This document shows, piece after piece, positions 5,236-53,691 of a stretch of 64,000 nt of DNA. The notes beneath the pieces are model-generated. The model was not told the origin of the DNA and did no database searches. It was given only the letters and a program-made list of their open reading frames with translations. Source of the stretch: a virus (lineage: Duplodnaviria > Heunggongvirae > Uroviricota > Caudoviricetes); IMG/VR virus record IMGVR_UViG_3300032050_000059. The stretch is one strand, 5' to 3'. Position 1 is the stretch's first letter. Every line of letters starts with the position of its first letter. The position numbers were made by a program, and so were the translations under genes.

Positions 5236-5293
5236 AATAAAAATAAAGCCCCCACCATTTTACTGATGAGGGCTATTTGGAGGTTAAGGGAAT

Positions 5294-6157
5294 TTAATAA
5301 TCATCACCATCATCAGAAAGTACAGCATCTGACGCCACGAGGTTATCATCTGCATTATACTCCTTCAGATCACGGAGAATATAGAAGTCTCTACATCCAT
5401 ATTCACCTGTAACATTGAGCACGAAGCGCTCATGTGGTTTAAGGTCTTTTAGCTTCTTAGCACGAAGACCACTTTGAACTGTACCATCATTATAGTTGAT
5501 GAGACGGAAGTTCTTCAGAGCATAAGCTGGCAAGAATGCCTTGTTGTATATACCCTGATATTCTTTGTTCTCACCATCTTTCTCTTTCATGATGATTGTA
5601 GCAAGAGCACCAATGTTTGTGCAATAAGCACCATCCACTTGTGCTTTCAGCTCGCTAACATTACCTTTCATTAGCTTCTTCCAGTCAGCTTGTAGAACAG
5701 CGTTCTCTTTCATGAAGTCAAGCTTACCCAACCAGGTGCGCAAGAATTCATAAAGTTCTTCTTCTCCTACATATGCAACACGGTAGTCACGCTTTGTGAA
5801 CCAGTCAGCTAAATCATTAGCATCTGCAGCCCAAGCACATCTACCAACATTATTGATATATTGTTTCTTAGAACCGTCTTTGTTTTCACGCTCTTTGTCC
5901 TCTAGGAAGAATGAAGCCTTGAACTTATCTCCGCTCTTGACATCCTTCAACCAGACATCAACACGCAGATAGGTGTTCTTATCCCTGCTCTGTCCTAAAT
6001 ACTCTGTAGCTTTACTGTTCTCAGGAAGTTCAATTCCTAATACTTCTTTGTACTCTTCTGCTGTAGGATTGATGGCTATTACCTCAGCCTCAAACAAACC
6101 TACCTTCTTTGCGAATTCTTGTACTTGTTTCTGTTCTCTTTGATCACCTTGAATCAT
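5294..6157 (-). CDS. putative single-stranded DNA-binding protein
   Basis: 287 aa with an acidic C-terminal tail LSDDGDDY typical of SSB C-termini. It sits between the primase-like and ATPase/helicase genes. Confidence 0.4.
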   Translation of the reverse strand: MIQGDQREQKQVQEFAKKVGLFEAEVIAINPTAEEYKEVLGIELPENSKATEYLGQSRDKNTYLRVDVWLKDVKSGDKFKASFFLEDKERENKDGSKKQYINNVGRCAWAADANDLADWFTKRDYRVAYVGEEELYEFLRTWLGKLDFMKENAVLQADWKKLMKGNVSELKAQVDGAYCTNIGALATIIMKEKDGENKEYQGIYNKAFLPAYALKNFRLINYNDGTVQSGLRAKKLKDLKPHERFVLNVTGEYGCRDFYILRDLKEYNADDNLVASDAVLSDDGDDY

Positions 6158-6192
6158 TGCTTTGAATTTTAAATGTTAATTAATGTGTGCTT

Positions 6193-6864
6193 TTATTTAT
6201 AATACTCGTCTATTGTTTCTGATACTAGCTTCAGATTGTTTGGCACCTTCACATCAGTGAACATACCATCTGGGCTCTTAGCAGGATATTTTCTAAACCT
6301 GTTGGTTAGGAAATAATAATTGGATGTACCGTCTTTGCTCTCCTCAACAAATGTGTATAGACACACTGTCAACAGACCTTCTAAGACAATCTGATTGTCA
6401 ATCATCTTACCAGCTGTCTTAATCTTGTATCCTATAATCTCACCACCATCTTCAATAGTTTCAGGATGTGTGAAATAGAACACTTTAAGATCGTCACGAA
6501 GAGCACGGGCTGTTCTAAAAAGATCAACCATGTCTCTAGCCATCAGTGTAAACTTGGTGAAACCAGTTTCTGTGGCTTTTGCCATCATGTTAAAACCCAT
6601 GATGTAGTTGCTGTCCTCAATAATAATATTCTTGATGTGAGGAGCATCGTTGGATAGCTTGCGCAATCTCTGTGAAATCAGGTTTGCGTCATCTATCTCA
6701 TCATAATTTCTGTTCTCTCTGTTGTACAATTTCTCTGCGCCTTTGAATGGTAATTCTTTCTTTGCTACGTTGATGATGTACGTTTCTTTCGGGTCCAGAT
6801 GTTTGATTGAAGTGGACTTGCCTGTACCAGTTGGGCCCACAATTCCGATTAATTTACTTGCCAT
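6193..6864 (-). CDS. P-loop ATPase (Sak4/AAA_24-like RecA-fold phage ATPase)
   Basis: N-terminal Walker A IGIVGPTGTGKST. Size of about 220 aa is typical of phage AAA_24 ATPases next to helicase genes. Confidence 0.5.
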   Translation of the reverse strand: MASKLIGIVGPTGTGKSTSIKHLDPKETYIINVAKKELPFKGAEKLYNRENRNYDEIDDANLISQRLRKLSNDAPHIKNIIIEDSNYIMGFNMMAKATETGFTKFTLMARDMVDLFRTARALRDDLKVFYFTHPETIEDGGEIIGYKIKTAGKMIDNQIVLEGLLTVCLYTFVEESKDGTSNYYFLTNRFRKYPAKSPDGMFTDVKVPNNLKLVSETIDEYYK

Positions 6865-6922
6865 GTGCTTTGATTTAAAATATGTAGTTTAATGAGCTAT
6901 AAAGATACAAAATCCCTATGAA

Positions 6923-7999
6923 TTAAACAAATTTTATCTTGTTTTTATCAAAGAATTCTAGGGCTTTTTTCAGCCATTTTCTCTCTACATCCTCGTTTGT
7001 ACAAATGATGTATATCTTGGCCTTCTTATCTGGATTATCATACTCCATAGCCATACATCTGTTAATCTTCTGAGCCAGGTTTTCTGCATTACTATCGAAA
7101 TAGTTGATAATCACCTTGTTTAAGGGTTTATACGTAACTCCTGTGTTACCTATCTTTACAACAGCCATGTGATTACCCTCACCTGCAGCAAACTTCTCAA
7201 ACATATCCTTCTCACCCTTCTTTGAGTGATAGGAAGGAATGCCTAATGCATCAGCTATTTTAGTGACACCACAGAACACTAGAATGCGTTCATCCTTGAA
7301 GTTCTGTAATATTCTCCTGGTGCACTCACGCTTGGCTAAACTGTTCTGGATTATTCTCATCCTTGCGAGCCTAAGAAACATTGTGTTTTTACCCTCACGC
7401 TCAGATTGATTTATACCCCACGTGTATGCATCAAATTGTTTTTTCTCTGTTCTCATCTTACCCTTGTAGTCTTGCTTCACTCTGTCATCCAAAGGAACTA
7501 GCTTTACAACTATCTCATAATCAACAATTACGCCTTCCTGGATAGCTTGCTCAATAGTGTACGTAGCAATGACACACAAATCTAGGTGATCACAGAGTGT
7601 GTCCTCTGTCCATCTGGATAAGGTGCCTGTTAGTCCTAATACAACATCATTATGCTTGAGCAGGTCCTTGGTTGCAAATAGCTGATTATCAGAGAGTAAG
7701 TGAATCTCATCTATAATCACCATATCATACTTGTTATCCTTGTACTTATGGAGAGATAGATGGGTGGTATATGTGACACCACTGTCATCATATCCACGTT
7801 TCTCAAAGTCTGCTTGCCAGGCAGCTTTAATCTTTGTGTCTGGATAGGCAATAAGAATGTTCGATGGTTTGGTCTTCTCAAGGATGTTGATGGTAGTGTA
7901 AATCTTGCCAAATCTTGGGCATAGATTCAATATACCAAACTTCCCTGCTTTAATCCACACATCAGCAAACTCAGCTTGCCTTTGGTCTCTTAGTGTCAT
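6923..7999 (-). CDS. SF2 DEAD/DEAH-box helicase
   Basis: Motif II DMVIIDEIHLL (DEIH), motif III LGLTGT, and an N-terminal GKIYTT P-loop-like segment. Confidence 0.65.
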   Translation of the reverse strand: MTLRDQRQAEFADVWIKAGKFGILNLCPRFGKIYTTINILEKTKPSNILIAYPDTKIKAAWQADFEKRGYDDSGVTYTTHLSLHKYKDNKYDMVIIDEIHLLSDNQLFATKDLLKHNDVVLGLTGTLSRWTEDTLCDHLDLCVIATYTIEQAIQEGVIVDYEIVVKLVPLDDRVKQDYKGKMRTEKKQFDAYTWGINQSEREGKNTMFLRLARMRIIQNSLAKRECTRRILQNFKDERILVFCGVTKIADALGIPSYHSKKGEKDMFEKFAAGEGNHMAVVKIGNTGVTYKPLNKVIINYFDSNAENLAQKINRCMAMEYDNPDKKAKIYIICTNEDVERKWLKKALEFFDKNKIKFV

Positions 8000-8241
8000 A
8001 GTATTTTTATAAATTGTCCATTCCTGTCAAGCAGTTGCACCACACCAAACTTAGCATCATACTCCTCGATAATACTATCAAGTATATCACGAGGATTACG
8101 CCACATAGGTAGATAGGTGAGAAGCTCCTGACCAGATAGCATTCTACCATGCTTAGAGCTGTCATAGTTCTCCCTATACTTTTCATATATTAGTATAGTA
8201 GGATTGGTCCTCCTTATTATCAGGTAGTCTTCTCTTGTCAT
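7996..8241 (-). CDS. hypothetical small protein (81 aa)
   Basis: ATG overlaps the helicase stop (ATGA). It partially overlaps the alternative ORF 8183..8404 in another frame. Confidence 0.3.
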   Translation of the reverse strand: MTREDYLIIRRTNPTILIYEKYRENYDSSKHGRMLSGQELLTYLPMWRNPRDILDSIIEEYDAKFGVVQLLDRNGQFIKIL

Positions 8242-8406
8242 TAAAAAAGATTGACACGCTCCAGAAAAGCCATTCTAGATTCACCACTGTGTACTTGTCA
8301 GCAGCATCAGGACTTCTTAGGATTGTAATGGTTGGTAATAGAATAATCTGCCAATAGGATTCTTCCTTACAGGGAACTGTAGAGAAGGTTTTGATACTCA
8401 TCATAG

Positions 8407-9468
8407 TTATTTGTTTAAGAAATAGGTTTTGTTTGTCACTGCCTCATAATCAGAATCTGTAATAGCAGATTTCTTAGGCAACTCTTTGAACATACCAATC
8501 TGGCCCATAAAGCCTAGACCAATACGAACATCATCTTCACCATAGGAATTCTTTATCAGCCTAAGGTTTCTAAAATACTTAGCACCATACTGATCCTTCA
8601 GCTTATTCAGGTCATAACCACTAGGGTCAGCCACCTTATAACGCATAGGATCAAACAGCGCTAACACAACATCAGCATCATTCTGAGTCTGTGAACTCTC
8701 AGCAAAATCTTCTAGCTGAGGCTCAACATCACCATTCTTTATCCTGATGGGATTGCTAATATCACGATTGAACTGACTCACAACCACTGGCGTATATCCA
8801 TAGAAGTCACGAGCATATCTAAGCTCATCTGACATCTTATCAATAGCCTGCTTCTTGGTAGTCTGGTCCTTGGTTGTCTTCAATAGACCAATATGATCTA
8901 TGATGACAATAGTGATTTCATTCTCATGATTGGGGAAATAGCGCTTATTGAACTCATCCACCTGTTCAATCTTGCCATGCTGCAGAGCGTGAGCTTTAAG
9001 CTCCTTAGCAATACCTACAGCGTTCTCTGGACCATCGATGATTGTGATGACATCATCCATCCTCTGGATGTAATCTTCATACATCAAGAACAAATCATGC
9101 TCATCCTTGGACATCTTATCATTCCAGCCCAATAGCTTGCTTACGGGGATGATAATCCCTTGGTCAATGAATATCTTCCTACTCACCCATTTAGCTAGCT
9201 TATATGTTCTAGAGCGCTCCATAGAGCGATATATGATGCGTAGCTTAACGCCTGGATCTGGTTGACTGATATACCAATCAAATGGATTCAGGACAAACGC
9301 ATCATCAATAAAACTTGTCTTACCAGAGCCTGTTAAACCACCTACAAGGAAGTATATGCTCTTACGGATGCCAATATACCTATTGAGCCTATTAAAGCCC
9401 ATGGGTATACCGTTATTCCTCCCTTCTAGGCCAAGCTCTACTTCTTTCTTAAGTAGTTCAAAACTCAT
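8407..9468 (-). CDS. DnaB-like replicative helicase (RecA-fold C-terminal domain)
   Basis: Walker A GGLTGSGKTSF, Walker B-like VIIDHIGLL, and the H4 motif VVVSQFNRD (Q..R) typical of DnaB/T7 gp4 helicases. Confidence 0.65.
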   Translation of the reverse strand: MSFELLKKEVELGLEGRNNGIPMGFNRLNRYIGIRKSIYFLVGGLTGSGKTSFIDDAFVLNPFDWYISQPDPGVKLRIIYRSMERSRTYKLAKWVSRKIFIDQGIIIPVSKLLGWNDKMSKDEHDLFLMYEDYIQRMDDVITIIDGPENAVGIAKELKAHALQHGKIEQVDEFNKRYFPNHENEITIVIIDHIGLLKTTKDQTTKKQAIDKMSDELRYARDFYGYTPVVVSQFNRDISNPIRIKNGDVEPQLEDFAESSQTQNDADVVLALFDPMRYKVADPSGYDLNKLKDQYGAKYFRNLRLIKNSYGEDDVRIGLGFMGQIGMFKELPKKSAITDSDYEAVTNKTYFLNK

Positions 9469-10091
9469 ATATCAGTTCCTCCTACGGGTTTATCAGTTTC
9501 TTCAACCTTTCCACCCTCTTTAATTAATTCAATGAATGGTTCAAAGCTACGCTGATTCAGATAGGTGAAAGAGTTCTGCATATAACTAAGTCTGTTAGTG
9601 CTAGTTTTAACAGAGTTCTCTTTCTTCTGAAGGACATCAAAGTTCAGCGCTTCTATCATTTGAGCTGCTGTATATTCTCCCTCAAGAAGAATCTTATCAA
9701 ACCTGAGCCTGCATTCATCTTTATTCTGTCTCAAGCTTCTTGCGCCTGTGAACTTCTTACCCTTGTGGGTAAATGTATCAGTGCCTGGATATGCTTTCCA
9801 CCACTCTTCAAACTCTGTAGTGGCAGGCTTACGCTTAACAATCTTTGTTGCTTCTTTGCTTTCTATAAATTTAAGGAGCTCTGTCCCTTCTGTCGTTATC
9901 TTCTCATCACTAGTGGATATGAGTCCTTTTCTAATTAAAGTTTGATAGAGCGCAGCGATCTTCATGCTTCCTTCACAGAGAGGCTGAACATCCATCTGCT
10001 GCTCTATCAACTTTAAGAGATAAATAACGTCCAAGGAATAGCCTTTTTTAATCAGCTCTTCAAAATGGTAGGGCGTTATCTTTAAGTTCAT
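9465..10091 (-). CDS. hypothetical protein (208 aa)
   Basis: ORF overlapping the DnaB-like gene start by 4 nt. Its position suggests a helicase-associated function. No motif found. Confidence 0.4.
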   Translation of the reverse strand: MNLKITPYHFEELIKKGYSLDVIYLLKLIEQQMDVQPLCEGSMKIAALYQTLIRKGLISTSDEKITTEGTELLKFIESKEATKIVKRKPATTEFEEWWKAYPGTDTFTHKGKKFTGARSLRQNKDECRLRFDKILLEGEYTAAQMIEALNFDVLQKKENSVKTSTNRLSYMQNSFTYLNQRSFEPFIELIKEGGKVEETDKPVGGTDI

Positions 10092-10249
10092 CTGGCTGGA
10101 GTTTATTCTCGTAAATCACTGTAATCTTTGCAGGAAGTCTATTCTCTTCCTCTATAATTTCCTGCATAATTTCTTCTTCTGTTCTAGCTTTGTCAGCCTG
10201 CAAATATACAACATCTTTCAGGTAATCCCGCTCAAAATCTTCAGAAAAA

Positions 10250-10801
10250 TTAACAACTTGCCCATCCAAAGAATACGTATTTTCCTTCTTTTTCATTTGA
10301 TGACTTTTTGTAGGAGATGTTAGCTACAATAGGCTTTCCCTTCTCCAATGTTTTCTCCATCACAACTGTTGTGGGAGATTGATGTTTCTCTGTGTAAGCT
10401 CTTGCAGCTTTCACTGCATCTCCTTTCGTGTTATGTCTGCTTAATTCGCCTTCACGCTTATGCACAACATACTTGAGCACCCATTTCTTGGTGCCAGGAG
10501 TTACAATGTGTTGCACCTGTGTCTTTATTTTATTACCATTAGTCACAGGTTCCTCTAGACAGATACATTCTGCACCTTGGAACTTAGTAAGTTCATCGAT
10601 GCGCTTCTCAATGTAGTTATACAAAGGAAGTTTTGCAGCTTTATATTCTTTTGTTACATCTCTGAATCCTGGCGTAGAATTGATGGCACCACTATATCCT
10701 TGTTGGTGGCCATATTCTGCTTCAGCATCATCAACTGCGTTCTGGTATGCTTCTTTAGCAGACATACCTCTGCTGTTCACTGTAAATGATTGTGATCCCA
10801 T
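10250..10801 (-). CDS. hypothetical protein (183 aa)
   Basis: ORF. A 78-aa ORF at 10060..10296 partially overlaps it. Confidence 0.4.
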   Translation of the reverse strand: MGSQSFTVNSRGMSAKEAYQNAVDDAEAEYGHQQGYSGAINSTPGFRDVTKEYKAAKLPLYNYIEKRIDELTKFQGAECICLEEPVTNGNKIKTQVQHIVTPGTKKWVLKYVVHKREGELSRHNTKGDAVKAARAYTEKHQSPTTVVMEKTLEKGKPIVANISYKKSSNEKEGKYVFFGWASC

Positions 10802-10813
10802 AAATAATTGATT

Positions 10814-10957
10814 TTAATTGTCATCATCCTCATGCCAAAATGTAGTGGTTGGATCATCGATATCCTCTTCTTCCTCATATAGAGGGGCTTTGTTTATCTC
10901 ATAGGCAAGCCATACCCAGGCAGTCACTAAGACCGCAATAAAAATGTAAATGAACAT
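10814..10957 (-). CDS. small membrane protein (47 aa): one hydrophobic helix plus an acidic tail. Coordinates are approximate.
   Basis: Manual translation gives MFIYIFIAVLVTAWVWLAYEINKAPLYEEEEDIDDPTTTFWHEDDDN. It falls below the ORF-track length cutoff and fills the gap between 10801 and 10963. Confidence 0.3.
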   Translation of the reverse strand: MFIYIFIAVLVTAWVWLAYEINKAPLYEEEEDIDDPTTTFWHEDDDN

Positions 10958-10962
10958 AAGGA

Positions 10963-11394
10963 TTAGTCTTTAATGCGAAGCCCATATCCCAGGTCAAACC
11001 ACTGGAATGTTTGTTCAGCTTTGCCTTTGTTGAATTTAAACACCTTCCTCAGTAGAGGAATAGCGTAAGACTTGAACAGCTCGTGCTGTTGTGTGGTCAT
11101 TGTGAAGTTGTGAAACCACATTTCATCCTTTTTAGCATCCTCTATGGTTTTACCCACCATATTCAGCTGATACTCAATTAGATGGTCCTGTATATTTGTT
11201 CTATTGATGGTCACCTTGGGCTGTGGGAAGAATCTATTGAGCCTTATTTGCTCTAGGAATTCTTTTTTATCCCACACTTCCACATGTGGACGCTCTTCAA
11301 TAAAAGACAGCTTGACAATATCCCCTTTAATGTAACTGATGAAACAAGGAGTACCAATGTAGTCCTTGTACTTGTCTCCTTTTGAAAGTTTCAT
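10963..11394 (-). CDS. hypothetical protein (143 aa)
   Basis: ORF that abuts the polymerase gene stop. Confidence 0.4.
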   Translation of the reverse strand: MKLSKGDKYKDYIGTPCFISYIKGDIVKLSFIEERPHVEVWDKKEFLEQIRLNRFFPQPKVTINRTNIQDHLIEYQLNMVGKTIEDAKKDEMWFHNFTMTTQQHELFKSYAIPLLRKVFKFNKGKAEQTFQWFDLGYGLRIKD

Positions 11395-13352
11395 TAGAAT
11401 AAGGTTAACTGATTAGGATTAACTACCACCTTGCGCTTCTTGCCTTCAGATGCTATCTTATAGATGATCTTCTCAGCACGCTCAATGTAATAGTCATAAT
11501 TAATGTTATCCAGAGGATGTTTTTTGTCTAGGTGATTGCATACGGTGGCTAACCACTCACCAGCTTCCACTTGTGAAACACTGGCAGCACCACTTTGACT
11601 GTCCTCATTTTTAACCTTTAGGAGCTTTTCTCCTGTATTGGAGATGTAATAACGAATGAGCTTATTGTATAGCTTCTTCTCACCTGTTGACTTATCTATT
11701 CCTTCATAATGGAAATCCTTGCTAGCCTTTTGTCTCAGGCAGAAGTCAAAGATATTATTATGATTCCTAATAGTATGCTCAATAGGTATATCACGAACAA
11801 AATATTGTTCAAGAGCCATTGGTACAATGCGTGCTGACTTGTTCTTATGAAGCTCGAAATCTGTGAGGAAATCGCCTTTCTTCTTAATTTCTCCATCTGT
11901 TTTTATCGCAAGATAGTCATTTACAGTGGAAAATATAATTTTTTGATAGTCAGCTCGTTCTAGCTCATATTTGGTCAGTTCAGACCACCATTTGTTTATC
12001 TCATGCATCCTATCGATGAGTGTCTTCTTTATTCTTATAGTGACACCATCTGTATTTGCAGAGATAACACGTATACCAGCTAGTTCATAGGCCTCAATAA
12101 GCATCATCAGGCTCAGTTCACCTGTAATAGTGGTGAACATAGTGAGCTGCCTATCATAAATCCAGGATTGCATATCACTAGATTTGCCATAAACTGAGTT
12201 TACAGCAAGCTTCAGTGCACCTACAATACCCTTGATTTTCTTATCCTTCTTAGCTAAAGGCTTGAGTTCCAATCGCTTCTCAAACATGGCTTGATAGCCT
12301 CTGAGAAACGCAGATCCTAAGTGTTGTGGATAACGGCCATTATTAATGATGATGGCTGGATAATAGGAACTTACGTCCCAGTCTATAATCTCATGCTCAT
12401 CATCAGCTTCAAATATCTTAGGTTTATTCTCTGTATGCAGTCCGCCCTTCATGAAAGAATATACATTATCATAGAAATGTAGCTCCTCCTTAAAGTCATC
12501 CTGCAGCCCTAAGCTTAATCTCTTTATTCTCTTGAGGAAGTCTTGTAGCTCTTTGGTCTGAAACTCCACATATGGAGCAATACAGTTCTTTACAGCTATA
12601 GTCTTCCTAAAGAAGCCCTTCTTGGGCAGTTCTTTATATTCTATTCCCTTCTCCTGGCAATAGAACTTCTTAATCATCTCATCACCTATCTTACTATCAG
12701 AATAGTTGAGACAAGGGATACCGAACTCTTGCTCGATATCCTGTCTCAGCTCAATCTTATTATCTCCCTTATACAAGGGATGATCTGTTTGTCCAATAGT
12801 AACTAAATAGAATTGATAAGTGGCCCACACATCATTCAAACAATAACCCGTGATGGTAAAAATATCATCGCTGGTCATGTCTGTCTTGTTGTGATCAATA
12901 GGCATCTCCTCAATATTCTCAAGGTCCATCTCAAACTCTAATCTCTTCAGGCTCACTCTTCTATTCTTGTTGTCAAAGTGGTGTATCCTGAATAAGTCTA
13001 TTTGTTTGAGCGTGAGGTCTGTCTCACGATACTCTGGAAATACATCATGATTAGCATCATCAATAACATCAGATGCTTTCTGATTTATCCTGGCTGTAAT
13101 CTCTAGACTAGAGAGCTCATGCCAATTCTCATAGTTGCGTATCACCCATTCTATCACCTGAGAGTCAAAGCGCAAGTTGTTGTAGCCCACCCAATGATAG
13201 TCTTTGTACTTCTCTGTGAAATTAATAAACGCATCCAGATTGTTCTCATCCTTATTCACCTTGAACACTCTGTATGGTTCTTGAGGAATCAACGCCACCA
13301 CAAGGAAATATTCTTTAAGCGTCTCTATGTCATAAATGATTACATTGTCCAT
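11394..13352 (-). CDS. family-B DNA polymerase with 3'-5' exonuclease domain
   Basis: Exo I IIYDIETL. Pol motif A DWDVSSYYPAII (Dx2SLYPS-like). Motif B KLAVNSVYGKS (Kx3NSxYG). Motif C-like ISANTDGV. Confidence 0.8.
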   Translation of the reverse strand: MDNVIIYDIETLKEYFLVVALIPQEPYRVFKVNKDENNLDAFINFTEKYKDYHWVGYNNLRFDSQVIEWVIRNYENWHELSSLEITARINQKASDVIDDANHDVFPEYRETDLTLKQIDLFRIHHFDNKNRRVSLKRLEFEMDLENIEEMPIDHNKTDMTSDDIFTITGYCLNDVWATYQFYLVTIGQTDHPLYKGDNKIELRQDIEQEFGIPCLNYSDSKIGDEMIKKFYCQEKGIEYKELPKKGFFRKTIAVKNCIAPYVEFQTKELQDFLKRIKRLSLGLQDDFKEELHFYDNVYSFMKGGLHTENKPKIFEADDEHEIIDWDVSSYYPAIIINNGRYPQHLGSAFLRGYQAMFEKRLELKPLAKKDKKIKGIVGALKLAVNSVYGKSSDMQSWIYDRQLTMFTTITGELSLMMLIEAYELAGIRVISANTDGVTIRIKKTLIDRMHEINKWWSELTKYELERADYQKIIFSTVNDYLAIKTDGEIKKKGDFLTDFELHKNKSARIVPMALEQYFVRDIPIEHTIRNHNNIFDFCLRQKASKDFHYEGIDKSTGEKKLYNKLIRYYISNTGEKLLKVKNEDSQSGAASVSQVEAGEWLATVCNHLDKKHPLDNINYDYYIERAEKIIYKIASEGKKRKVVVNPNQLTLF

Positions 13353-13513
13353 TATTCTTCTATTTTCCAGTAGTGATCACATTCTTTCTTCTCCTCATTG
13401 TATGGAGGATTAACAAAATAGGATTGTCTGTATTCATTAGGTGTAGCTGTATATCTATAACAGTCTTCCTTCAGAGGACAATCTTTGCCTTCGCACATTG
13501 TGATATCGGCCAT
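13352..13513 (-). CDS. small Cys-rich protein (53 aa) translationally coupled to the polymerase gene
   Basis: Manual translation gives MADITMCEGKDCPLKEDCYRYTATPNEYRQSYFVNPPYNEEKKECDHYWKIEE. Its stop TAA overlaps the PolB ATG (TAATG), and its ATG overlaps the HNH stop by 1 nt. Confidence 0.35.
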   Translation of the reverse strand: MADITMCEGKDCPLKEDCYRYTATPNEYRQSYFVNPPYNEEKKECDHYWKIEE

Positions 13514-13929
13514 TAGATTTCGTTTTTAATATACTTGATAATATTCTCTAATATGTCTAGAGTTAATGATGACTTTAGAAGATTGGCTTTTCGAGATATC
13601 ACTCTGATATTACCTTTTACATATCCTTTATTGTTATCAACTCTATCTAAAGACATTGCATTTGGTAAATACCCATCGCCTTTTGCTAGTGTTAATCCAA
13701 GAATAGGACACTTTTCTGGTATGATTATATCCTCTTTTTCTATACTAAACTCAGTTCCATATTTTCTGGCTCTGGTTCTAGCAACATACCATAAATAATA
13801 TTGAGGGTCATTCTTAAACTTAACCTTTCTAGACGTCTCATATAAAACCTTATTGCCTTGTGAACGTTTTTCCTTATTTTTCTTTCTATACTCTATATCG
13901 TAGAGTCTCTTTTTTTCCTTGGATGTCAT
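13513..13929 (-). CDS. HNH homing endonuclease (HNH_3-type)
   Basis: C-terminal motif SLDRVDNNKGYVKGNIRVISRKAN. It is free-standing and immediately upstream of the polymerase gene. Confidence 0.75.
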   Translation of the reverse strand: MTSKEKKRLYDIEYRKKNKEKRSQGNKVLYETSRKVKFKNDPQYYLWYVARTRARKYGTEFSIEKEDIIIPEKCPILGLTLAKGDGYLPNAMSLDRVDNNKGYVKGNIRVISRKANLLKSSLTLDILENIIKYIKNEI

Positions 13930-14832: not shown

Positions 14833-15153
14833 TTAGAAATATATTCTAATATGATCGTCATATCTCTCCACCCTTGCTATTTTCTGTGTAGGAGTTCTAG
14901 GAGTTTCCATTACAGCTGTTTCAGGAGCTGCAGGAGTTGTTGTATTCTTTTTCCTGCGTCTCTTTGGACCATTCCATTCTGCAATTTTGTACGTACGCTT
15001 AGCGAGATTGTACAATGTCATACGGAATGATTCTTCTGGTCTGTTGTACTGAGCTGCCAATCTTTCTGAAATAGAAACAATAGGCTCTCCTGTGCGAATA
15101 ATTGCTTTAAGTTGATTTACTTCTTCTGTTGTGAGGCGTTGTCCTTTTGGCAT
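14833..15153 (-). CDS. hypothetical protein (106 aa), possible HTH regulator with a basic C-terminus
   Basis: N-terminal LTTEEVNQLKAIIRTGEPIVSISERL is helix-turn-helix-like. It also contains a KRRRKK basic patch. Confidence 0.35.
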   Translation of the reverse strand: MPKGQRLTTEEVNQLKAIIRTGEPIVSISERLAAQYNRPEESFRMTLYNLAKRTYKIAEWNGPKRRRKKNTTTPAAPETAVMETPRTPTQKIARVERYDDHIRIYF

Positions 15154-16636: not shown

Positions 16637-17224
16637 TTAAGAATTGTCGTCCATATCTGTTTCATCATCTTCTTCATCATAATATATTTCTCCCTCTCCC
16701 TTACATACAGGACAGGCTGTGTCTGGTGTAGCACCATATCCTGAACCATTACAATGTCCACATAACCAAGGACCATCATCCTCTTCTTCCTCTTCCTCAT
16801 CATCCCATGTGTCAGGAATAGACATAGTCACCTTGTCTGCGTAAATAATAGGATTCACCTCATCCTCATGAGCAAAATCCCATTCATCTATCTCAATGTG
16901 TACATATCCATCCCATTCATTAATGATAAGATTGATATCCTTTAGTTCTACATCTCTGAGCTCATCGAACTCAGGACCATCATCCCACCATCCAATCTCA
17001 TGTGGCTCAGCTATCACCTGCTCATCATAAATTAAATAAGGCTCTACAGGCGCACCATGTTTAGCTATGAACTCTTGCATGGGTTCTAAAGGAAACTTAT
17101 CAAGTGCCCATATCTCTGAATATTCTTTTCTGGTGCCTGGATTGAGTTTTGTAATAAACCACATTCCTAGCTCCAATTGCTTAGGCATATAGCTCTTAAG
17201 TACGAGTTCTGCGGTGAAATGCAT
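16637..17224 (-). CDS. acidic protein with a C-terminal DnaJ-like CxxCxGxG zinc finger (195 aa)
   Basis: CGHCNGSGYG...CPVCKGEGEI motif pair, and an EEEEEEDD acidic tract. Confidence 0.4.
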   Translation of the reverse strand: MHFTAELVLKSYMPKQLELGMWFITKLNPGTRKEYSEIWALDKFPLEPMQEFIAKHGAPVEPYLIYDEQVIAEPHEIGWWDDGPEFDELRDVELKDINLIINEWDGYVHIEIDEWDFAHEDEVNPIIYADKVTMSIPDTWDDEEEEEEDDGPWLCGHCNGSGYGATPDTACPVCKGEGEIYYDEEDDETDMDDNS

Positions 17225-17226
17225 AA

Positions 17227-17445
17227 CTATTTGTTTTGCAGATGTTTAAGAATGTCTTTCTCTTTAAATGTACGCTTCTGTGGATTAGCAGCACCCATAG
17301 GATCTTGTGTACTATCTACACGAACACATTCGTACAGATCATCTCCTAAATGTTTAGCCACCTTCCATGCTTGATACAATGATTTGCCAGCTGTGCCAGC
17401 CTCATGTCTTTCAATATGCTTTCTGAATATTGTTCCTATTCTCAT
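17227..17445 (-). CDS. hypothetical small protein (72 aa)
   Basis: ORF. Confidence 0.3.
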   Translation of the reverse strand: MRIGTIFRKHIERHEAGTAGKSLYQAWKVAKHLGDDLYECVRVDSTQDPMGAANPQKRTFKEKDILKHLQNK

Positions 17446-17471
17446 ATTATTCTTTTTTATATGTTTCGTAG

Positions 17472-17801
17472 TTATTTTTTTTCAGGTGTTCCAAAAGGAC
17501 CAATAATATAATCATCTATTTCTCTGTCATTAAGATATTCTTGTTCATTTGCATAGTTCTCTGCATCATTGATATGATTGCATTGAGCATCTGTATATCC
17601 AGCATTATAATCTTTTATACGCTGCTCTTTCTCCATTGCTTTGGCTTGGTTAATAAGATTATCCAATAGCAACCATTCAATAGTGACATAACCCAATCCT
17701 GAATTATTTTCTAATTGCTGCTTGAGCCATTCTACTGCTGTTTGTTGTGCCATGTTTTGCATTTTTAAGGATTCTTGTTGTGCAATTTGTAGCTCACACA
17801 T
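17472..17801 (-). CDS. hypothetical protein (109 aa), Q-rich
   Basis: ORF. Its ATG at 17801 is embedded in a palindrome and tandem-repeat cluster. Confidence 0.4.
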   Translation of the reverse strand: MCELQIAQQESLKMQNMAQQTAVEWLKQQLENNSGLGYVTIEWLLLDNLINQAKAMEKEQRIKDYNAGYTDAQCNHINDAENYANEQEYLNDREIDDYIIGPFGTPEKK

Positions 17802-18310
17802 GAGCTATAATGTCCGTTATAACGGACAAAAATGAGCTATAATGTGCATAATAACGGACATTATACTCTTTTGGATATAAAAAGGCAATATATTGCTCTT
17901 TTATATGCTTTCGGGTATAGAAAACAGTTTTACGTACGTAAAAGTGTGATTTACAGCACTTTTTCAAACATAAAAATGGAGCAGCCTATGTTTCAAGACT
18001 GCTCCTGTGTACTTACTAATAACCCAACCCTTCGAGTTCATATGCATTAGCTTCCACAACAATATTGCCATGGCTCACTGAATACATAAATAAGATGTGC
18101 AAGCGATTTGCAAGGGCTTGGAATAGTTTAAACTCTGTTGGTGTGAATGTGATCTTTTTCATTTTGAAGGATTGTGTGTTGTTGATTAATAAGGACGATT
18201 TGCTTTACGAACAACCTGTTCCCAAGTCATTCTACCCTTGCAGCCATAACCTGTGGTCCTGCAAGACGACATAAATATAGCAATAACTGCTAACAATAAC
18301 AATTTTCTCA
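17802..18310. promoter_or_regulatory. ORF-poor regulatory region dense in perfect palindromes and a 30-bp tandem duplication
   Basis: Perfect palindromes: TGTCCGTTATAACGGACA (17811-17828), GCAATATATTGC (17886-17897), TTTTACGTACGTAAAA (17927-17942), and the hairpin GGAGCAG-N14-CTGCTCC (17979-18006). There is a tandem ATGAGCTATAATGT... duplication at 17802 and 17832, and an inverted copy ATAACGGACATTAT at 17851-17864. Confidence 0.5.
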
Positions 18311-18493
18311 TTAGAACTTGTTTTTAGGGTTGAGAAATTCCTTTTTATTATCCATGAGAGATGTAAATATCCCTTCACATGCATTATCCCAATGTGAGCT
18401 GTCCCACATAATAATGCTAACTATTGCATGCCATGCAATGAATGGTGAGGCTAATGCTATAGACACACCATAATAAAACCATCTTAACAACAT
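18311..18493 (-). CDS. small hydrophobic (membrane) protein (60 aa)
   Basis: The hydrophobic stretch YYGVSIALASPFIAWHAIVSIIMW. Confidence 0.35.
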   Translation of the reverse strand: MLLRWFYYGVSIALASPFIAWHAIVSIIMWDSSHWDNACEGIFTSLMDNKKEFLNPKNKF

Positions 18494-18565
18494 AACTAAT
18501 TGATTTACAAATTAATAATAACTGATTGATTATCAGCTGATTAATACTATTTTCTGTATTCTAGA

Positions 18566-20251: not shown

Positions 20252-20733
20252 AATGCCCTTTCAGTTTTTTGTGTGGTGACTCCACATTTTACAGTTAATA
20301 ATTATTAAGGAAAAGAACAGGGGGGCTATCCCGACTCTCCAAATTCTGCTGGGGGTTTCTGGATGGAATACCCTCCCCTCCCATGCACATAATAGGTTTT
20401 TGGTTCCACGTGGAACATGGGGGGATTGTCAACCTATAGGCTTACATATGGGGGTGTTTTGTCAGCTTATAGGTTTACAAAAAAAATTTTGTTGGTTATA
20501 TGGAGGATGTGTTATAACTTTGGGGCGGTGGGTGGGTTAGGTGATAGTTCCGTCCTATGGATATATGAGCAATTGGTGGTTTGAAGTGGTTGACGGATGT
20601 CTCTGAGCTAAGAATATAAGAATGGGGAAGGTGTATCTGGTTGAAAATAAGACATAATATAGCAATAGTATAAAAGATTGTATTTGACTATGTTATAAAG
20701 TCTTCCTATCTTTGTATCAACTACATTAACAAT
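20252..20733. promoter_or_regulatory. divergent intergenic switch region: G-runs, direct repeats, a perfect palindrome and a host-type promoter
   Basis: The 14-bp perfect palindrome GTTCCACGTGGAAC (20403-20416). Two roughly 30-bp direct repeats, GGGGGGATTGTCAACCTATAGGCTTACA (20419-20446) and GGGGGTGTTTTGTCAGCTTATAGGTTTACA (20450-20479). Several further G5-6 / C-rich runs. Local GC is well above the genome background. Confidence 0.55.
20683..20714 (+). promoter_or_regulatory. Bacteroidetes sigmaA-type promoter (-33 TTTG / -7 TAnnTTTG) for the rightward operon
   Basis: TTTG (20683-20686), then a 20-nt spacer, then TATCTTTG (20707-20714), about 20 nt upstream of ATG 20734. This matches the Bacteroidetes consensus spacing of 19-21 nt. 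Confidence 0.5.
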
Positions 20734-21078
20734 ATGAAGGTCATATTACAAAAGCTGAAGAAACAGGAGGAGGATAGCTATCTGGTAGCAGAGAGGTATT
20801 ACACCATCCTGTCAGCTATTAATGATCTTAAGCTGACACAAAGGGAAATACAGCTTTTGGCTTTTACGGCTATTAGGGGGAATATATCCTATGCCAATAT
20901 AAGACAGGACTTCTGTGATAAGTATGGCACCACCAACCCCTCTATAAACAACATCATTTCCAGGCTGAAGAAGATGGGGGTGCTGGTGAAGGATGGGACA
21001 AAGGTGAAGGTGAACCCCAAAATACTATTAAACTTTGAAAACGATGTCACCCTTGAAATCAGACTTGTTCACAGATAA
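20734..21078 (+). CDS. hypothetical protein (114 aa), possible HTH regulator
   Basis: First ORF of the rightward arm. Contains the segment LTQREIQLLAFTAIRGNISYANI. Confidence 0.4.
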   Translation: MKVILQKLKKQEEDSYLVAERYYTILSAINDLKLTQREIQLLAFTAIRGNISYANIRQDFCDKYGTTNPSINNIISRLKKMGVLVKDGTKVKVNPKILLNFENDVTLEIRLVHR

Positions 21079-29333: not shown

Positions 29334-30887
29334 ATGGCAATTCAAACAATCCCAGGTCTAACTGGCTTCACGTATGCTCGTGTCGCATCTATGGACAAGC
29401 GTGCTGTGGGTAAGCTAACTGACGCTAACCACCTGGAGAGCTTTCACTCAACTGAGCCTGCTGATTACGATAAGAAAATCATCAGCCTCTACACACAGAG
29501 CTCTCTTTACAGCAATGACTTCCTAGACATGATCAACAAAAGCACGCCTTATTACATTGATAATAATAGCGATGCTTGGAAATGGCAAGTAGCTGTTCCC
29601 TACAAATTCCCTAAGATTATCGACATCCCTGCTTCAACTCTTGAGTTGAGCAAGCCTGGTATCGATGGTCAAGAGTTCCAATTGGTAATTGACACAAACG
29701 AGTTCTCTAAGAACGCAATCGTTTCTGTTGGTTCTCGCCAATATGGTCCTCGCTTTTACGTTATTAAGGATCCAGTTCCTTGGAACATGGGCTTCCTTTA
29801 TAGCTTCACTTTGGTTACAGACAATCCAACTGTAGACTTCGTTAGCCCTACCTTCTTGCAAGTGGGTATCGAACTTGAGTTGGTTGATGCTGCAATTGGT
29901 GAGTTCGATCAAGATTTGTTAGGTCTTCCTCGTTTGGGTGAGCAAATCACAATGTTTGAATCTTTGGGTTCTGCATATGGTTTTGAGCACAAAATCACTG
30001 AGTGGGCTGATGACAAAATGATGCGTGACTCTGCAGGACGTCCTTTGGATATCCTTGTTTATGCACCTCAGCGTCGTAACCAACTTCCTTTGACTCGTAA
30101 CGATGTTAAATGGGAGCCATTCATTGAGTTCTGGATGCGTAAGTCTATGCTTGAGTTGAAAGTTAAGCGTATGATTTGGTCTCGTCCTGGTACTGTTAAG
30201 ACTAACGGTAGCAAGCAAGAACTTAAGCGTACATCTGCTGGTGTTTATCACAGAATGCGTAATAACGGTAACTTGGTTCAGTACAACCGTGGAGAATTCA
30301 CTGCAAACTTGATTCGTTCAGTGTTTGGTGATTTGTTCTATCGTCGTGTGGATGTTAAGGACCGTCGTGTTAAAATGTATACTAATGAAGCAGGTTTTGA
30401 CGTGTTCCAACAAGCTTTGAAGACAGACGCTTTGAACAGTGGTTTGACATTCATGGCTGATAGCGGAAACCGTTACATGCAAGGAGAAGGTCAACACATC
30501 ACTTACAACTTTGCATTCGATGCAATGGTTACTCGTGAGACTGGTCGTGTTGAATTGATTCACTTGAAAGAACTTGACCTGCCTCAATCTAACCTTGAAT
30601 TTGGTCAGAACAAGAAGTCAACTCCTGTATTCATGGTGTTCGACGTATCTCCAATGTCTGATGGTTCTTTGGTTAATAACATCCGTGAAGTTCGTATGAA
30701 GGGTGCACCTTCTATGACTTGGGGTTATATCGATGGAACTCGCCACCACTTGGGCTTTGCTAAGTCTCAGGGTATGAGCTCTGCGAACAAATTCCCAGGA
30801 TATGAAATCTGGATGAAGGATCGTTGTGATGTATTCATTGAAGACTTGTCTCGTACAGTCTTGATTGAGGAAATCCCACAATTCTAA
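29334..30887 (+). CDS. major capsid protein
   Basis: 517 aa. Gene order fits. Extreme translation-optimised codon usage (Arg almost exclusively CGT; GGT/GCT/GTT/AAC/GAC preferred), unlike neighbouring genes. Followed by a multi-hairpin element. Confidence 0.6.
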   Translation: MAIQTIPGLTGFTYARVASMDKRAVGKLTDANHLESFHSTEPADYDKKIISLYTQSSLYSNDFLDMINKSTPYYIDNNSDAWKWQVAVPYKFPKIIDIPASTLELSKPGIDGQEFQLVIDTNEFSKNAIVSVGSRQYGPRFYVIKDPVPWNMGFLYSFTLVTDNPTVDFVSPTFLQVGIELELVDAAIGEFDQDLLGLPRLGEQITMFESLGSAYGFEHKITEWADDKMMRDSAGRPLDILVYAPQRRNQLPLTRNDVKWEPFIEFWMRKSMLELKVKRMIWSRPGTVKTNGSKQELKRTSAGVYHRMRNNGNLVQYNRGEFTANLIRSVFGDLFYRRVDVKDRRVKMYTNEAGFDVFQQALKTDALNSGLTFMADSGNRYMQGEGQHITYNFAFDAMVTRETGRVELIHLKELDLPQSNLEFGQNKKSTPVFMVFDVSPMSDGSLVNNIREVRMKGAPSMTWGYIDGTRHHLGFAKSQGMSSANKFPGYEIWMKDRCDVFIEDLSRTVLIEEIPQF

Positions 30888-51026: not shown

Positions 51027-53690
51027 ATGGCCTCTTATACAGACATAATACCCCAGTTTAACCCCTATATCCAGCAGCTTCCTGTGGAGGCTATGGTGCA
51101 GGTGGGTATGGAGAAACAGAAGCGCTATGATGAGGGGGTCCAAAAGATTCAGTCTCAGATAGATAGTGTAGCTGGCTTGGACATATACCATCCTTCAGAT
51201 AGAATGTATTTGCAGTCTAAACTGAATGAACTTGGTAACAATCTTAGAACTGTGGCCGCTGGTGATTTCTCCAACTATCAGCTTGTCAACTCTGTAGGAG
51301 GTATGACTACCCAGATTGTTAAAGACAAAAATGTACAGAATGCTGTACGTTCTACACAACAGATTAGGAAGCAACAAACTTTGATGGACCAGGCTAGGGA
51401 GAAAGGTACCCTCCATAGAAACAATGAGATTTTCTTCAACGACCAGGTGATCTCCTATCTGAATAACAATAAAGTGGGACAGGTATTTGGTGAGAACTAT
51501 CAACCGTACACTGACTACCAGAAAAAGTGGTTGGAAGTCCAAAAGAGTCTTGGTATAAAGGAAACACAAACAGATCTTCCATTTGTAATGCAAGATGGTA
51601 AGATAGTCATTGACCCAAAGACCAAGAAGCCTATGGTCAATGATTACATGGTAAGGGAAACCTTCAAAGGTGTTGATGCTCAAAGACTTAAGGAAGCCAT
51701 CATGGCAGCTATGGATGATAATGACTATGCACAGATGAAGATTGATGCATATGTTAGCTACAAGGGATACACACCTGATATGCTTATTAAGGAAGCTGAT
51801 AGCACTTATAGGTCTAACAAAGAGGAGTTGACAAAGACTATAGACAATCTAACCATCCTGAAAACTCAGAATGTTGGAAATCAACAGATGACCAAGGATA
51901 TAGATGTTCAACTTGAACAATATAAAAAACAGCTGAAGAATACAGAAGATCAGTATAGAGATGTAATAGCAGGAATTCAGGCAAATCCTGAGGGATACAA
52001 ACAGAAGCTATTTGCAATGAATTCTATAAACAACTTTGCTAATAGTTTCTCAAACATATCCCATATTCAAAATATTGTAGATAGTCCCATCAAAAAACAA
52101 ATGAATGAGGACAGAGCCTACAACTTCAAGGTGGTTGAGTTTAACACAAAGAATGCTCAGTGGCAGAAAGAGTTTGGTTTAAAAGTAGCTACAGAATCTA
52201 GACTTGCAAATAAAGAAGCATTTGACCAAGCACTAGCCTTATATAAAGAAGGATTGGGTCCTAATCCTCTTGGTCCAACTACAGCTAAATATGTTGGAGC
52301 TCCTCCTACAGATAAAGAGATATTGGATGGAATGGTAGAAAGCTTTAAACAAGGAGCTGACATAGACCAACTGAATAATGACAAGAATGCATTAAAGGTG
52401 AATTGGGCAAAGAACCAGCCTTCTAAAGCAGACTATGCAAAACAGAAAGGAATAGATCTTAAAAACTATACAGACGCACAATATAGAGCTGATTTAGATA
52501 AACAATTCAACAGTGACTTAGCTGCATATAATTCAAACAAGAACTCTGTAGATGCTCCTACAAGAAAAATCCTTGGTCAGTATTCTGAGCTGGATAGATT
52601 GTATAAGCTTAAGGTTAATGCAATAAATGATGCAACTGAAAAAGCAAACGCACTTCATCCTGAAGTGACTGAAGAGGCAAATAAGCTATCTAACAATAAG
52701 GTGAGCTTTTTGGATTATACATTTAAAGATGGAAAACCTGGAGTGTATAACATACTAACAAAAAGTGCAAGAGAGATATACGAAGATATTCAATCTGGAA
52801 AAGCCACATTAAGAGTGGACAAAGCTCCTGGAGGATATATTGTACTTAGATATCCTGGTTCAAATATTACATATGAAATATCTAAGAAAGGTGGATTCTT
52901 TGGTTCTGACAAGGTGGGAGGAAAACAAACAAGAGAATTGCTTTTGTCTGTTCATGATACATACAACAGAGTAGGACAGTCTATTAAAAATAGAGATGCA
53001 GACTTTGCAAAAATACTTGGTGAAACTATCAACTCTGTAGCTCCAGTATCATCATTGCTTCCAAAGGGAGCAACAAGCACTCTTCTACCTTTGATAGAGG
53101 ATAAACTAGGAAGAGAGCAAAAAGGACAGACAGAGGAACTAGCTGGCTTTGTAAAAGGTAAGGATTTTAACTTTGACACTGTAAAAGAACTAGCTCTAAA
53201 TCCTGACACTAAGGTGACTCATACTACCTGGGGAGATAATGTATTCATTACAATGACTGGAATGCTAGGTAAAAATCTTGCAACTCAGAAGTTTAAGATT
53301 TCAAAGTCTGACTTTGCTACAATGTATCCAAATCTTGTTGACAATACAAATATGGATTTCTGGCAATCAGCAGCAGCAAATGGTAGCACCAACTACAAAT
53401 ATCACGTTGCTAAGAGCGCTTTGATGAATCCAGATGATGCTTTCACTTCTGGCACTTACGATATTCCATCTAAGAAATACATAGTGAAGGGTGATATCTT
53501 CTTTGATCAAACTGACAAAAACAACACCACCCCTGTTGTTTATGTAAAAAGTAAAAAGACAGGAAAGGTTGTTCCTATTCCTGGCGAGGTGTTTTCTACT
53601 TTTTCAGGTTCTGAAAAATCAATGTATCAAGTGAATGATCTGTTGATAGAGAACTACTTTAAAAATAATAATCTAGATGCCGATTTTTAA
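51027..53690 (+). CDS. large virion protein (887 aa), K/N/D-rich
   Basis: ORF. Candidate -7 promoter element TACATTTG at 51005-51012. Ends with tandem stops TAATAA. Confidence 0.45.
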   Translation: MASYTDIIPQFNPYIQQLPVEAMVQVGMEKQKRYDEGVQKIQSQIDSVAGLDIYHPSDRMYLQSKLNELGNNLRTVAAGDFSNYQLVNSVGGMTTQIVKDKNVQNAVRSTQQIRKQQTLMDQAREKGTLHRNNEIFFNDQVISYLNNNKVGQVFGENYQPYTDYQKKWLEVQKSLGIKETQTDLPFVMQDGKIVIDPKTKKPMVNDYMVRETFKGVDAQRLKEAIMAAMDDNDYAQMKIDAYVSYKGYTPDMLIKEADSTYRSNKEELTKTIDNLTILKTQNVGNQQMTKDIDVQLEQYKKQLKNTEDQYRDVIAGIQANPEGYKQKLFAMNSINNFANSFSNISHIQNIVDSPIKKQMNEDRAYNFKVVEFNTKNAQWQKEFGLKVATESRLANKEAFDQALALYKEGLGPNPLGPTTAKYVGAPPTDKEILDGMVESFKQGADIDQLNNDKNALKVNWAKNQPSKADYAKQKGIDLKNYTDAQYRADLDKQFNSDLAAYNSNKNSVDAPTRKILGQYSELDRLYKLKVNAINDATEKANALHPEVTEEANKLSNNKVSFLDYTFKDGKPGVYNILTKSAREIYEDIQSGKATLRVDKAPGGYIVLRYPGSNITYEISKKGGFFGSDKVGGKQTRELLLSVHDTYNRVGQSIKNRDADFAKILGETINSVAPVSSLLPKGATSTLLPLIEDKLGREQKGQTEELAGFVKGKDFNFDTVKELALNPDTKVTHTTWGDNVFITMTGMLGKNLATQKFKISKSDFATMYPNLVDNTNMDFWQSAAANGSTNYKYHVAKSALMNPDDAFTSGTYDIPSKKYIVKGDIFFDQTDKNNTTPVVYVKSKKTGKVVPIPGEVFSTFSGSEKSMYQVNDLLIENYFKNNNLDADF

Positions 53691-53691
53691 T

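Follow-up and report, generated by a model that had tools for sequence, protein, structure and literature searches.

Within a 64,000-nucleotide stretch of DNA from an uncultured phage (Caudoviricetes; IMG/VR virus record IMGVR_UViG_3300032050_000059), hereafter called the window, we analyzed a cluster of palindromes at 17802-18010. The cluster lies in the leftward arm of the genome, in the gap between a 48-codon gene (18016..18162) and an open reading frame (ORF) annotated at 17472..17801, both on the minus strand. We judge it rather likely that positions 17754-18015, which on comparative grounds are non-coding and separate two minus-strand genes, constitute a control region in which an intrinsic terminator, one or more promoters and tandem operators for a helix-turn-helix (HTH) repressor gate the second leftward transcription unit. 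The observations that carry this reading are the conservation of a repeat module with two dyads, its portability among phages, the recurrence of its layout at hipBA-like promoters of Bacteroidota, the structure and covariation of the terminator, and the non-coding status of the region. Relatives of the locus (given here as L numbers) were collected from IMG/VR and JGI metagenomes by exact and degenerate pattern searches and by searches with the flanking proteins. The element is of an ordinary kind for a phage control region; as far as could be found, its operator-module family is undescribed.

All four of the palindromes or hairpins that the initial annotation had listed are present where it placed them. 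The perfect palindrome TGTCCGTTATAACGGACA lies at 17811-17828 (B-dyad 2 below), GCAATATATTGC at 17885-17896 (the C-dyad) and TTTTACGTACGTAAAA at 17928-17943 (the D-dyad), and the GGAGCAG...CTGCTCC hairpin has arms of 10 bp each (17978-17987 and 17996-18005, with one G-T pair) around an 8-nt loop. The palindrome AGCTCA-CACA-TGAGCT is part of a longer, 24-bp dyad, TTGTAGCTCA-CACA-TGAGCTATAA, at 17787..17810 (the A-dyad). Within the window these motifs occur at this locus alone. Palindromes of at least 12 bp are not enriched across the window (14, where first-order Markov random sequences give 18 +/- 4), although a cluster of three within 214 bp turned up in just 6 of 200 random sequences. The window has three palindromes that measure at least 16 bp, with about 1.3 expected per 64 kb, and two of the three fall in this region. 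Conservation is, on the sequences compared, the stronger argument against chance than clustering, and comparison with related phages, which had been suggested as a check, found the dyads and the repeat module retained.

The duplication described earlier as a 30-bp tandem repeat is real, but its period is 32 bp rather than 30 (17795-17826 versus 17827-17858, 84% identical). It corresponds to a 58-bp module of two 18-bp dyads of the form TGTnnnTTAnnAnnnACA, flanked by TAATG and CATTA; the repeat module, at 17806-17865, recurs in phages and in Bacteroidota genomes. B-dyad 1 (17843..17860) is promoter-proximal and imperfect, reads TGTCCGTTATTATGCACA on the minus strand and starts at the last T of a TATAAT hexamer. 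B-dyad 2, the perfect palindrome, has its center 32 bp from that of dyad 1, and the 14-nt spacer between them holds an additional copy of the A-dyad box (A-box, 17833-17842) and ends in CATTTTTG. The module is 89-93% identical to its counterparts in relatives, compared with 78-80% for the adjacent 48-codon coding gene. Fifteen distinct phage versions share the arrangement TAATG-TGTnnnTTAnnAnnnACA-N13-15-TGTnnnTTAnnAnnnACA-TTA, and in these 15 phage modules and in 10 bacterial modules the dyad centers are 31-33 bp apart, or three helical turns; the search pattern fixed TGT, T7 (position 7), ACA and a spacing of 31-33 bp, so that these features are not independent evidence and other spacings were unsampled.

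Other features lay outside the search pattern. The site can be written TGTnnnTTA|TAAnnnACA, in which position 8 is T and position 9 is A in 56 of 60 phage half-sites each, and the flanking CATTA, absent from the search pattern, is mostly kept. Spacer sequences show no relation to one another across these modules (15 from phages, 10 from bacteria). Positions 4-6 hold a triplet that differs from one phage module to another (CCG, GCG, GCA, CCC, GTC, CTA, TGA and GGC); its similarity is 0.71 between the direct-repeat half-sites h1 and h3, versus 0.24-0.67 for the inverted pairs, and hybrid dyads such as TGTCCG...TGCACA exist. We read the B module as four copies of a protein half-site and not as a selected RNA or DNA stem. 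The duplicated unit, with its conserved outer bases, helical phasing and free spacer, is best read as operator sites for a regulator, as suggested earlier. Motifs for DnaA, CRP and LexA binding were considered and set aside, as they misfit in spacing or in the variable position before ACA.

The same layout was found in bacterial chromosomes. Of the 13 contigs that the degenerate pattern matched among 185,579 species genomes, 12 belong to Bacteroidota, and two isolates, Puia dinghuensis and Dyadobacter sp. CY312, are represented. Nine of the 13 matches lie directly upstream of a gene for a ~105-residue HTH_31 (XRE) protein, whose ATG falls inside a CATTATG flank, and in at least seven of these nine loci a HipA-like ORF comes next (HipA_C was confirmed by Pfam for L163); by gene content these loci are hipBA-like operons. 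The right flank TTA is present in 9 of the 13 genome matches although the pattern left it unspecified, and phage and bacterial modules have further unspecified features in common, namely a T-run before dyad 2 and a central TATAA. In the chromosomal copies, dyad 1 contains TTTG, and 19 nt downstream of it lies a TAnnTTTG motif (for instance TATATTTG) whose final TG is that of dyad 2, which is the -33/-7 geometry of Bacteroidota promoters (PMC7366714). With the chromosomal promoter motifs inside the dyads, the arrangement matches an autoregulated promoter-operator of the E. coli hipBA kind. The layout is also retained in a GC-richer variant that precedes a HipB-like gene (L169/L170). Two further matches precede genes for AAA_14 ATPases, one of them adjoining a WYL-domain gene, and in a contig from Paludibacter the module is built as three tandem 32-bp units; loci of the AAA_14 and tandem-unit kinds are L155 3732-3785, L166 3691-3744 and L159 2145-2234.

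The hipBA promoter of E. coli has four dyad operators (TATCC-N8-GGATA), to which HipB binds cooperatively (PMC3920265). The phage module resembles these operators in having several dyads in helical phase that overlap a promoter, here a putative one, and its layout, TAATG-TGTnnnTTAnnAnnnACA-N13-15-TGT...ACA-TTA, is also that of the Bacteroidota HTH_31 promoters. Unlike hipBA, the phage module is not accompanied by a cognate HTH gene, whether adjacent or otherwise detectable, and its neighbors are unrelated phage genes. The half-site triplets differ as well, with CCG and GCG in phages versus TCA, TTA and TTG in chromosomes, and phage dyad 1 lacks the -33 TTTG that is present in chromosomal dyad 1.

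Dyads of this kind could instead act in RNA, as leader or intercistronic hairpins serving as an RNase III-type processing site, a stabilizer, or a translational or nut/boxB-kind antitermination signal. Folded as RNA, the module reaches -27.1 kcal/mol (z = -7.9) and the A-dyad -8 kcal/mol, and the modules of several phages adjoin stop codons or stand a short way ahead of start codons, much as T7 RNase III sites do. Moreover, position 4/15 changes symmetrically within dyads, swapping C:G to G:C, and a short hairpin would predict such covariation just as a dyad-binding protein would. However, the 58-nt long hairpin shows no compensatory change at any pair and scores below all 500 shuffles, and position 6/13 is unpaired, as an internal mismatch, in six of eight second dyads. 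Direct-repeat half-sites are as alike as inverted ones, and what is conserved is the sequence itself (TGT, TTA, the flanking TAATG) rather than the pairing. A scan of the control region with Rfam gave sub-threshold chance matches only, with no family reaching threshold. In addition, dyad 1 of the bacterial modules lies over the -33 region and would not be transcribed. We regard an RNA-level role for the module as unlikely, and prefer the protein-site reading.

We also examined where the module lies in other phages. It occupies at least six genomic contexts among related phages, the junction seen in the window being one. It directly follows the stop codon of a DNA polymerase gene in L010, L053, L082 and L184, where the TAA of TAATG is itself the stop codon, and the stop codon of another gene in L150; in L094 and L181 it precedes a gene start by 19-22 nt, in L036, L044 and L119 it lies on an insertion of ~110 bp in the divergent control region, and in L145 and L178 it lies between convergent genes. 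IMG/VR contigs with the module include UViG_3300042444_000068, 3300025872_000207, 3300032311_000270, 3300002835_000611, 3300023184_001780, 3300042868_007578 and 3300008117_001274, whereas close relatives of the L018-L022 type lack it. A second metagenome scan added 12 more phage modules, none of them beside a regulator gene. Matches of the L133 type, at the 3' end of an integrase gene and all from one sample, were treated as probably unrelated. Directly behind the module of L010 is a 134-codon ORF (9770-10174) with a GIY-YIG-like motif (GIYHLFYNELLVYIGMS), which is not present at the same junction in L053 or in the window and looks like a free-standing homing-endonuclease insertion.

The region in the window is itself a mosaic junction. 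Positions 17785-18304 are conserved at 75-86% in L011-L014, L015/L177 and L016, with the downstream gene swapped or absent. Similarity to L015/L177 ends at 17800 and that to L011-L014 at 17785, both inside the A-dyad. L177 is 95.7% identical to the window over the replication genes (5244-13526) but only 78% over 17800-18521, and it is without 17472-17800, which marks the region as such a junction. L177 and L015 lack the first gene after the module, and L012/L179 have in its place a family member with 30% identity; by this comparison, the gene at 17472-17800 is a swappable cassette.

Such mobility raises an alternative in which the module is a selfish or recombinogenic palindromic cassette, comparable to a MITE or to the promoter-stem-loop (PeSL) elements of phages, that spreads or promotes gene shuffling and has no regulatory role of its own. 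The number of contexts fits this, as does the way the module marks boundaries of insertion or replacement (the stop of similarity at 17800, the ~110-bp insertion in L036, the GIY-YIG gene in L010). The PeSL cassettes of T4-type phages, which Arbiol et al. are said to have described in 2010, reportedly combine an early promoter with a stem-loop and occur in many copies per genome. The module is like them in being a short cassette of promoter plus palindrome that flanks variable ORFs and marks recombination boundaries, and unlike them in that it is present in one copy and its palindromes look like protein sites. Against a purely selfish element stand the single copy per locus, with the window itself single-copy rather than carrying many per genome, the strict spacing and invariant half-site positions across phages whose proteins are only 30-68% identical, and the clear operator layout at bacterial promoters. 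An element with no other role is thus improbable in our estimation; the idea is compatible with the operator reading and does not exclude it.

Upstream of the module in the direction of transcription lies the GGAGCAG hairpin, which the initial annotation had counted among possible operators and which is instead a predicted intrinsic terminator, given its U-tract, its sense-strand fold and its compensatory pairs. The terminator spans 17968..18005 on the minus strand; its stem pairs 18005..17996 with 17987..17978 across an 8-nt loop and is followed by the tail AUUUUUAUGU. A consensus scan gave a stem of 10 bp with six G-C pairs, located 10 nt past the stop codon at 18016. The fold is more stable on the minus strand (-18.4 kcal/mol, z = -5.9) than on the plus strand (-14.7). 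Across 7 distinct terminator sequences of relatives, 98.6% of cells are paired. Compensatory changes occur at two pairs (G-C to A-U, and U-A to C-G), one further pair is U-G in five sequences, a wobble that pairs only in the sense RNA, and the observed pairing score was reached by 1 of 500 shuffles. Since the sequences are related, this covariation is supportive rather than proof. The 48-codon gene that precedes the hairpin (18016..18162, minus strand, stop codon at 18016-18018) encodes a protein that is shared by 11 viral contigs at 70-100% identity, and the gene is always followed by the hairpin or by a replacement for it. This gene closes the first leftward transcription unit, and the hairpin is, by prediction, the intrinsic terminator of that gene and unit.

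Between the terminator and the downstream gene we found three candidate promoters, all on the minus strand. P1 (TATGTTTG, 17965..17972) is a perfect match to the -7 element TAnnTTTG of the Bacteroidota sigma-A consensus, in which a -33 TTTG may accompany it (PMC7366714). It is kept unchanged in L015 and L016 and takes the form TACGTTTG in L017; as a match to an 8-mer it is weak alone, and no conserved -33 element was seen for it. P2 (17860..17888) is sigma-70-like, with TTGCCT at 17888..17883, a 17-nt spacer and TATAAT at 17865..17860. It scored 10/12 in a promoter scan that returned 11 such sites in 2 kb against 9 +/- 3 in shuffled sequence, and its hexamers and 17-nt spacing are kept, with the spacer sequence varying, in L015, L016 and L023, making four lineages with the window. 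A comparable case is phi14:2, a crAss-like phage of a Bacteroidota host, whose middle promoters have an extended motif with -35/-10-like blocks that E. coli sigma-70 RNA polymerase uses (bioRxiv 10.1101/2020.03.07.982082); P2 is of the same character by description, and the phi14:2 motif occurs many times per genome as against a single copy in the window. P3 (CATTTTTG, 17827..17834) is -7-like, with five of the six specified positions of TAnnTTTG, and straddles the spacer and B-dyad 2. Its register is the same as that of TATATTTG in the chromosomal modules L161, L163 and L165, and it is from this shared register only that we infer a possible promoter there. Some phage copies of the module have not kept the promoter motifs.

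The remaining dyads are also shared among relatives. Of all elements of the intergenic region, the D-dyad (17928..17943) is the most widely retained, being present in the window, L015, L016 and L017 and as one-base variants in L018-L023, including loci without a B module; since single-base variants are found on either arm (L018 versus L022), a strand-specific RNA stem is disfavored. The C-dyad (17885..17896), whose own two TTGC ends provide -35-like hexamers on both strands, is the center of a 58-bp imperfect palindrome, 17862-17919, and it occurs in one or two copies in L015, L016 and L023. The same three loci have the 24-bp A-dyad, with a variable 4-nt center and downstream A-boxes. Read along the minus strand, the order is terminator, P1, D-dyad, C-dyad, P2, B-dyad 1, spacer, B-dyad 2, A-dyad and leader, the last running 33 nt from the A-dyad (17810..17787) to the ATG at 17753.

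On these grounds we propose the following working model. Positions 17754-18015 would be the control region between a first leftward transcription unit of small early ORFs and a second that leads into the replication genes. Transcription arriving from the divergent region at ~20.3-20.7 kb would end at the terminator (18005..17978 and the U-tract) and would restart just downstream, within 17975-17820, from at least one of P1, P2 and P3. The module would provide two 18-bp operators, each composed of the half-site TAATGTnnnTTA, with centers three helical turns apart, which would extend over the -10 hexamer, the transcription start and ~45 nt at the beginning of the P2 transcript. Cooperative binding by a pair of HTH repressor dimers would then turn the second unit off, and the A-, C- and D-dyads may add other protein sites to this switch. 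The module would serve as a portable promoter-operator cassette, at whose edges gene cassettes are exchanged. Protein binding, the choice of promoter and the direction of regulation are the parts of this model that we deduce from sequence.

Operators over an early promoter are familiar from temperate phages: the OR and OL operators of lambdoid phages, and those of P22 and 434, are 14-18-bp dyads that lie over early promoters, bind repressor dimers cooperatively and diverge in sequence between related phages. Lambdoid operators comprise three sites ~24 bp apart next to cI and cro. Unlike them, the phage module consists of two sites 32 bp apart with no repressor gene nearby.

Several points weigh against the operator model. 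In addition to the stable RNA fold of the module and the symmetric exchanges at position 4/15, no gene is a constant neighbor of the module, and the 64-kb window, which is not the whole genome, contains no XRE/HipB-like protein and no HTH at Pfam threshold. The phage triplets CCG and GCG were found at no hipB promoter among the 185,579 species genomes, and the link to HipB-type regulators consequently rests on the shared layout and not on an identical site. The -35 element of P2 is lost in L182 (ATGCAT) and in L017, and -35/-10 promoters are not normally used by a Bacteroidota host (PMC7366714).

The search for a binder returned a series of negatives. For HipB-like proteins in the window, tblastn found none, Pfam found none on about 40 ORFs, and hhalign of a HipB profile against 69 window ORFs stayed below 4% probability throughout. 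HipB-like proteins do occur in viral contigs, but these contigs are unrelated to the module-bearing phages and were discarded as a source. When metagenomes were searched by exact match for a gene under autoregulation through the phage-type site TGTCCGTTATAACGGACATTATG, there were 0 matches. We also considered the gene of the MAQQTAVEWL family that follows the module in four lineages as an obligatory autoregulator and rejected it, as L177 and L015 have the module without the gene. Of the two HTH-like proteins named in the initial annotation, 14833..15153 has no detectable match to an HTH family, and 20734..21078 is a winged-helix protein whose gene travels with a different pair of 20-bp dyads. 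The module does lie upstream of the homologue of this second gene in L036, L044 and L119; it is there a ~110-bp insertion, and the gene co-occurs everywhere with the separate 20-bp dyads, so that we dropped it as the binder. A tblastn search with the winged-helix protein against 50,697 GenBank phages found nothing. The 20-bp dyads, TGTCAACCTATAGGCTTACA (20427-20446, upstream of 20734..21078) and, 33 bp from it among G-runs, TGTCAGCTTATAGGTTTACA (20460-20479), are conserved in the window, L011, L012, L036 and L119, and the divergent control region contains a further palindrome, GTTCCACGTGGAAC, at 20403-20416. The pair at 20427-20479 is likely a second operator pair and possibly comprises the winged-helix protein's own sites; because the gene travels with these dyads, the protein more likely binds them. 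The binder of the module is encoded outside the window, too divergent to recognize, or host-encoded.

The last of these options has a specific form, in which the phage carries cis sites only and the binder is a labile XRE/HipB-type antitoxin of the host. If this were true, the second unit, including the replication genes, would stay silent until the repressor decays after infection or under stress, and a host toxin-antitoxin regulator would act as an early-to-middle timer for the phage or as a dormancy switch in a carrier state. Binding by a host antitoxin would amount to a new kind of phage-host coupling; otherwise this is an ordinary phage control region. We consider this version a long shot, and the absence of phage-type triplets from the hipB promoters surveyed speaks against host HipB as the binder. 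Very little is known of how crAss-like and other uncultured phages of Bacteroidota control transcription, and the region provides a testable cis-regulatory map made up of a terminator, promoter candidates and the 58-bp putative operator module. A module common to many uncultured phage lineages, in a layout common to Bacteroidota hipBA-like promoters, could serve as bait for the regulator, and it is a possible marker of gene-cassette boundaries in mosaic genomes.

The initial annotation had also suggested an internal origin, in which the dyads would be iterons for an initiator such as the winged-helix protein 20734..21078, near the replication genes. That protein has a sub-threshold match to the N-terminal part of Phage_rep_O (E = 2e-4), the phage also encodes an HU/IHF-like protein, and the dyads are repeated within an AT-rich intergenic region upstream of the helicase and polymerase genes. 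However, there are only two B-dyads compared with the three or more iterons of a lambda ori-like origin, and the position of the module varies in relatives, from between convergent genes to 19 nt before a start codon. The module layout is found at bacterial hipBA promoters as well, and the GC skew turns at the divergent region and not at 17802-18010. The initiator-like gene, 2.9 kb away, has its own dyads at 20427-20479 in L011, L012, L036 and L119. An origin at this site is accordingly something we hold to be quite improbable.

Almost no credence can be given to the idea that the region is coding or contains coupled small plus-strand ORFs (MSYNVRYNGQK, then a 72-codon ORF), for although both exist in the window, they are truncated or absent in relatives and antisense to every neighboring gene. 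Specifically, the 72-codon ORF (17832..18050, plus strand) is spurious, being 36 codons long in L011 and 37 in L012 and without its start motif in L080, and alignment A1 of relatives has gaps of 1-2 columns across it. The 11-codon mini-ORF (17800-17835, plus strand) is likewise spurious, and MSYNV at the N-terminus is retained solely through its overlap with the conserved repeat in the DNA; translational coupling between the two, as earlier proposed, finds no support. A 57-codon ORF on the minus strand has 35, 49 or 33 codons in other loci. With no crossing ORF conserved and no conserved protein encoded across the palindromes in relatives, the judgment that this DNA is regulatory rather than coding holds.

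The start of the downstream gene was also revised. The ATG at 17801, which had been placed within the AGCTCA/TGAGCT palindrome, opens a 109-codon ORF (17472..17801) that relatives match only from residues 13-20 onward by tblastn. Homologues begin at MAQQTAV or MKQTAVEWL, equivalent to M17 at 17753. For both reasons the true start is most probably at 17753, about 48 nt downstream, giving a minus-strand gene of 93 codons (17472..17753, beginning MAQQTAVEWL...) with 17754-17801 as leader. The first ~17 codons of MAQQTAVEWL-family genes (ATGGCACAACAAACAGCAGTAGAATGG, window 17727-17779) have 81-100% nucleotide identity across loci that otherwise show no relationship (L001, L004, L005, L010, L053), some with two or three MAQQTAVEWL paralogues, and this segment may be a recombination linker.

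The window belongs to an uncultured phage with a crAss-type major capsid protein (29334-30887, Pfam Crass_capsid), a P22-like portal and a DnaB-like helicase. The best cultured relative of the capsid protein is 25.6% identical and comes from a Leptolyngbya phage, which makes this phage only distantly crAss-like, and a DNA search with 17400-18400 against the 50,697 GenBank phages found no similar sequence; for both reasons no annotated relative could be used. Two divergent gene arms meet at ~20.3-20.7 kb, with the genes of the leftward arm on the minus strand. No integrase or lysogeny module was seen in the window, and PHROGs and Pfam searches with the neighboring small ORFs returned nothing useful. 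The third gene after the control region (16637-17224, minus strand) encodes an acidic protein of 195 residues with two CxxC pairs near its C-terminus, which weakly matches the DnaJ zinc finger (E = 0.0016) and a Q-like antiterminator PHROG (E = 0.0046). A leader motif, TTGTAAATCAATTAGTTATG, lies at 18494-18530, directly upstream of the gene 18311..18493; it is also found directly upstream of start codons in leaders of L015, L016, L018 and L023, downstream of the module in relatives, and may be a -7-like promoter or a translation-initiation signal.

At the other end of the window, 53677-64000 on the plus strand is taken up by a single ORF, which exceeds 3,441 codons and continues past the window end. 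This stretch looks gene-free because the giant ORF is missing from the ORF listing; we had suspected stop-codon recoding in 53.7-64 kb and rejected it, as the one giant ORF explains the emptiness. Inside this ORF lies the third-longest perfect palindrome of the window, CAAACATTATAATGTTTG (61142-61159), and it contains ACATTATAATGT, which has the sequence of two module flanks set back to back.

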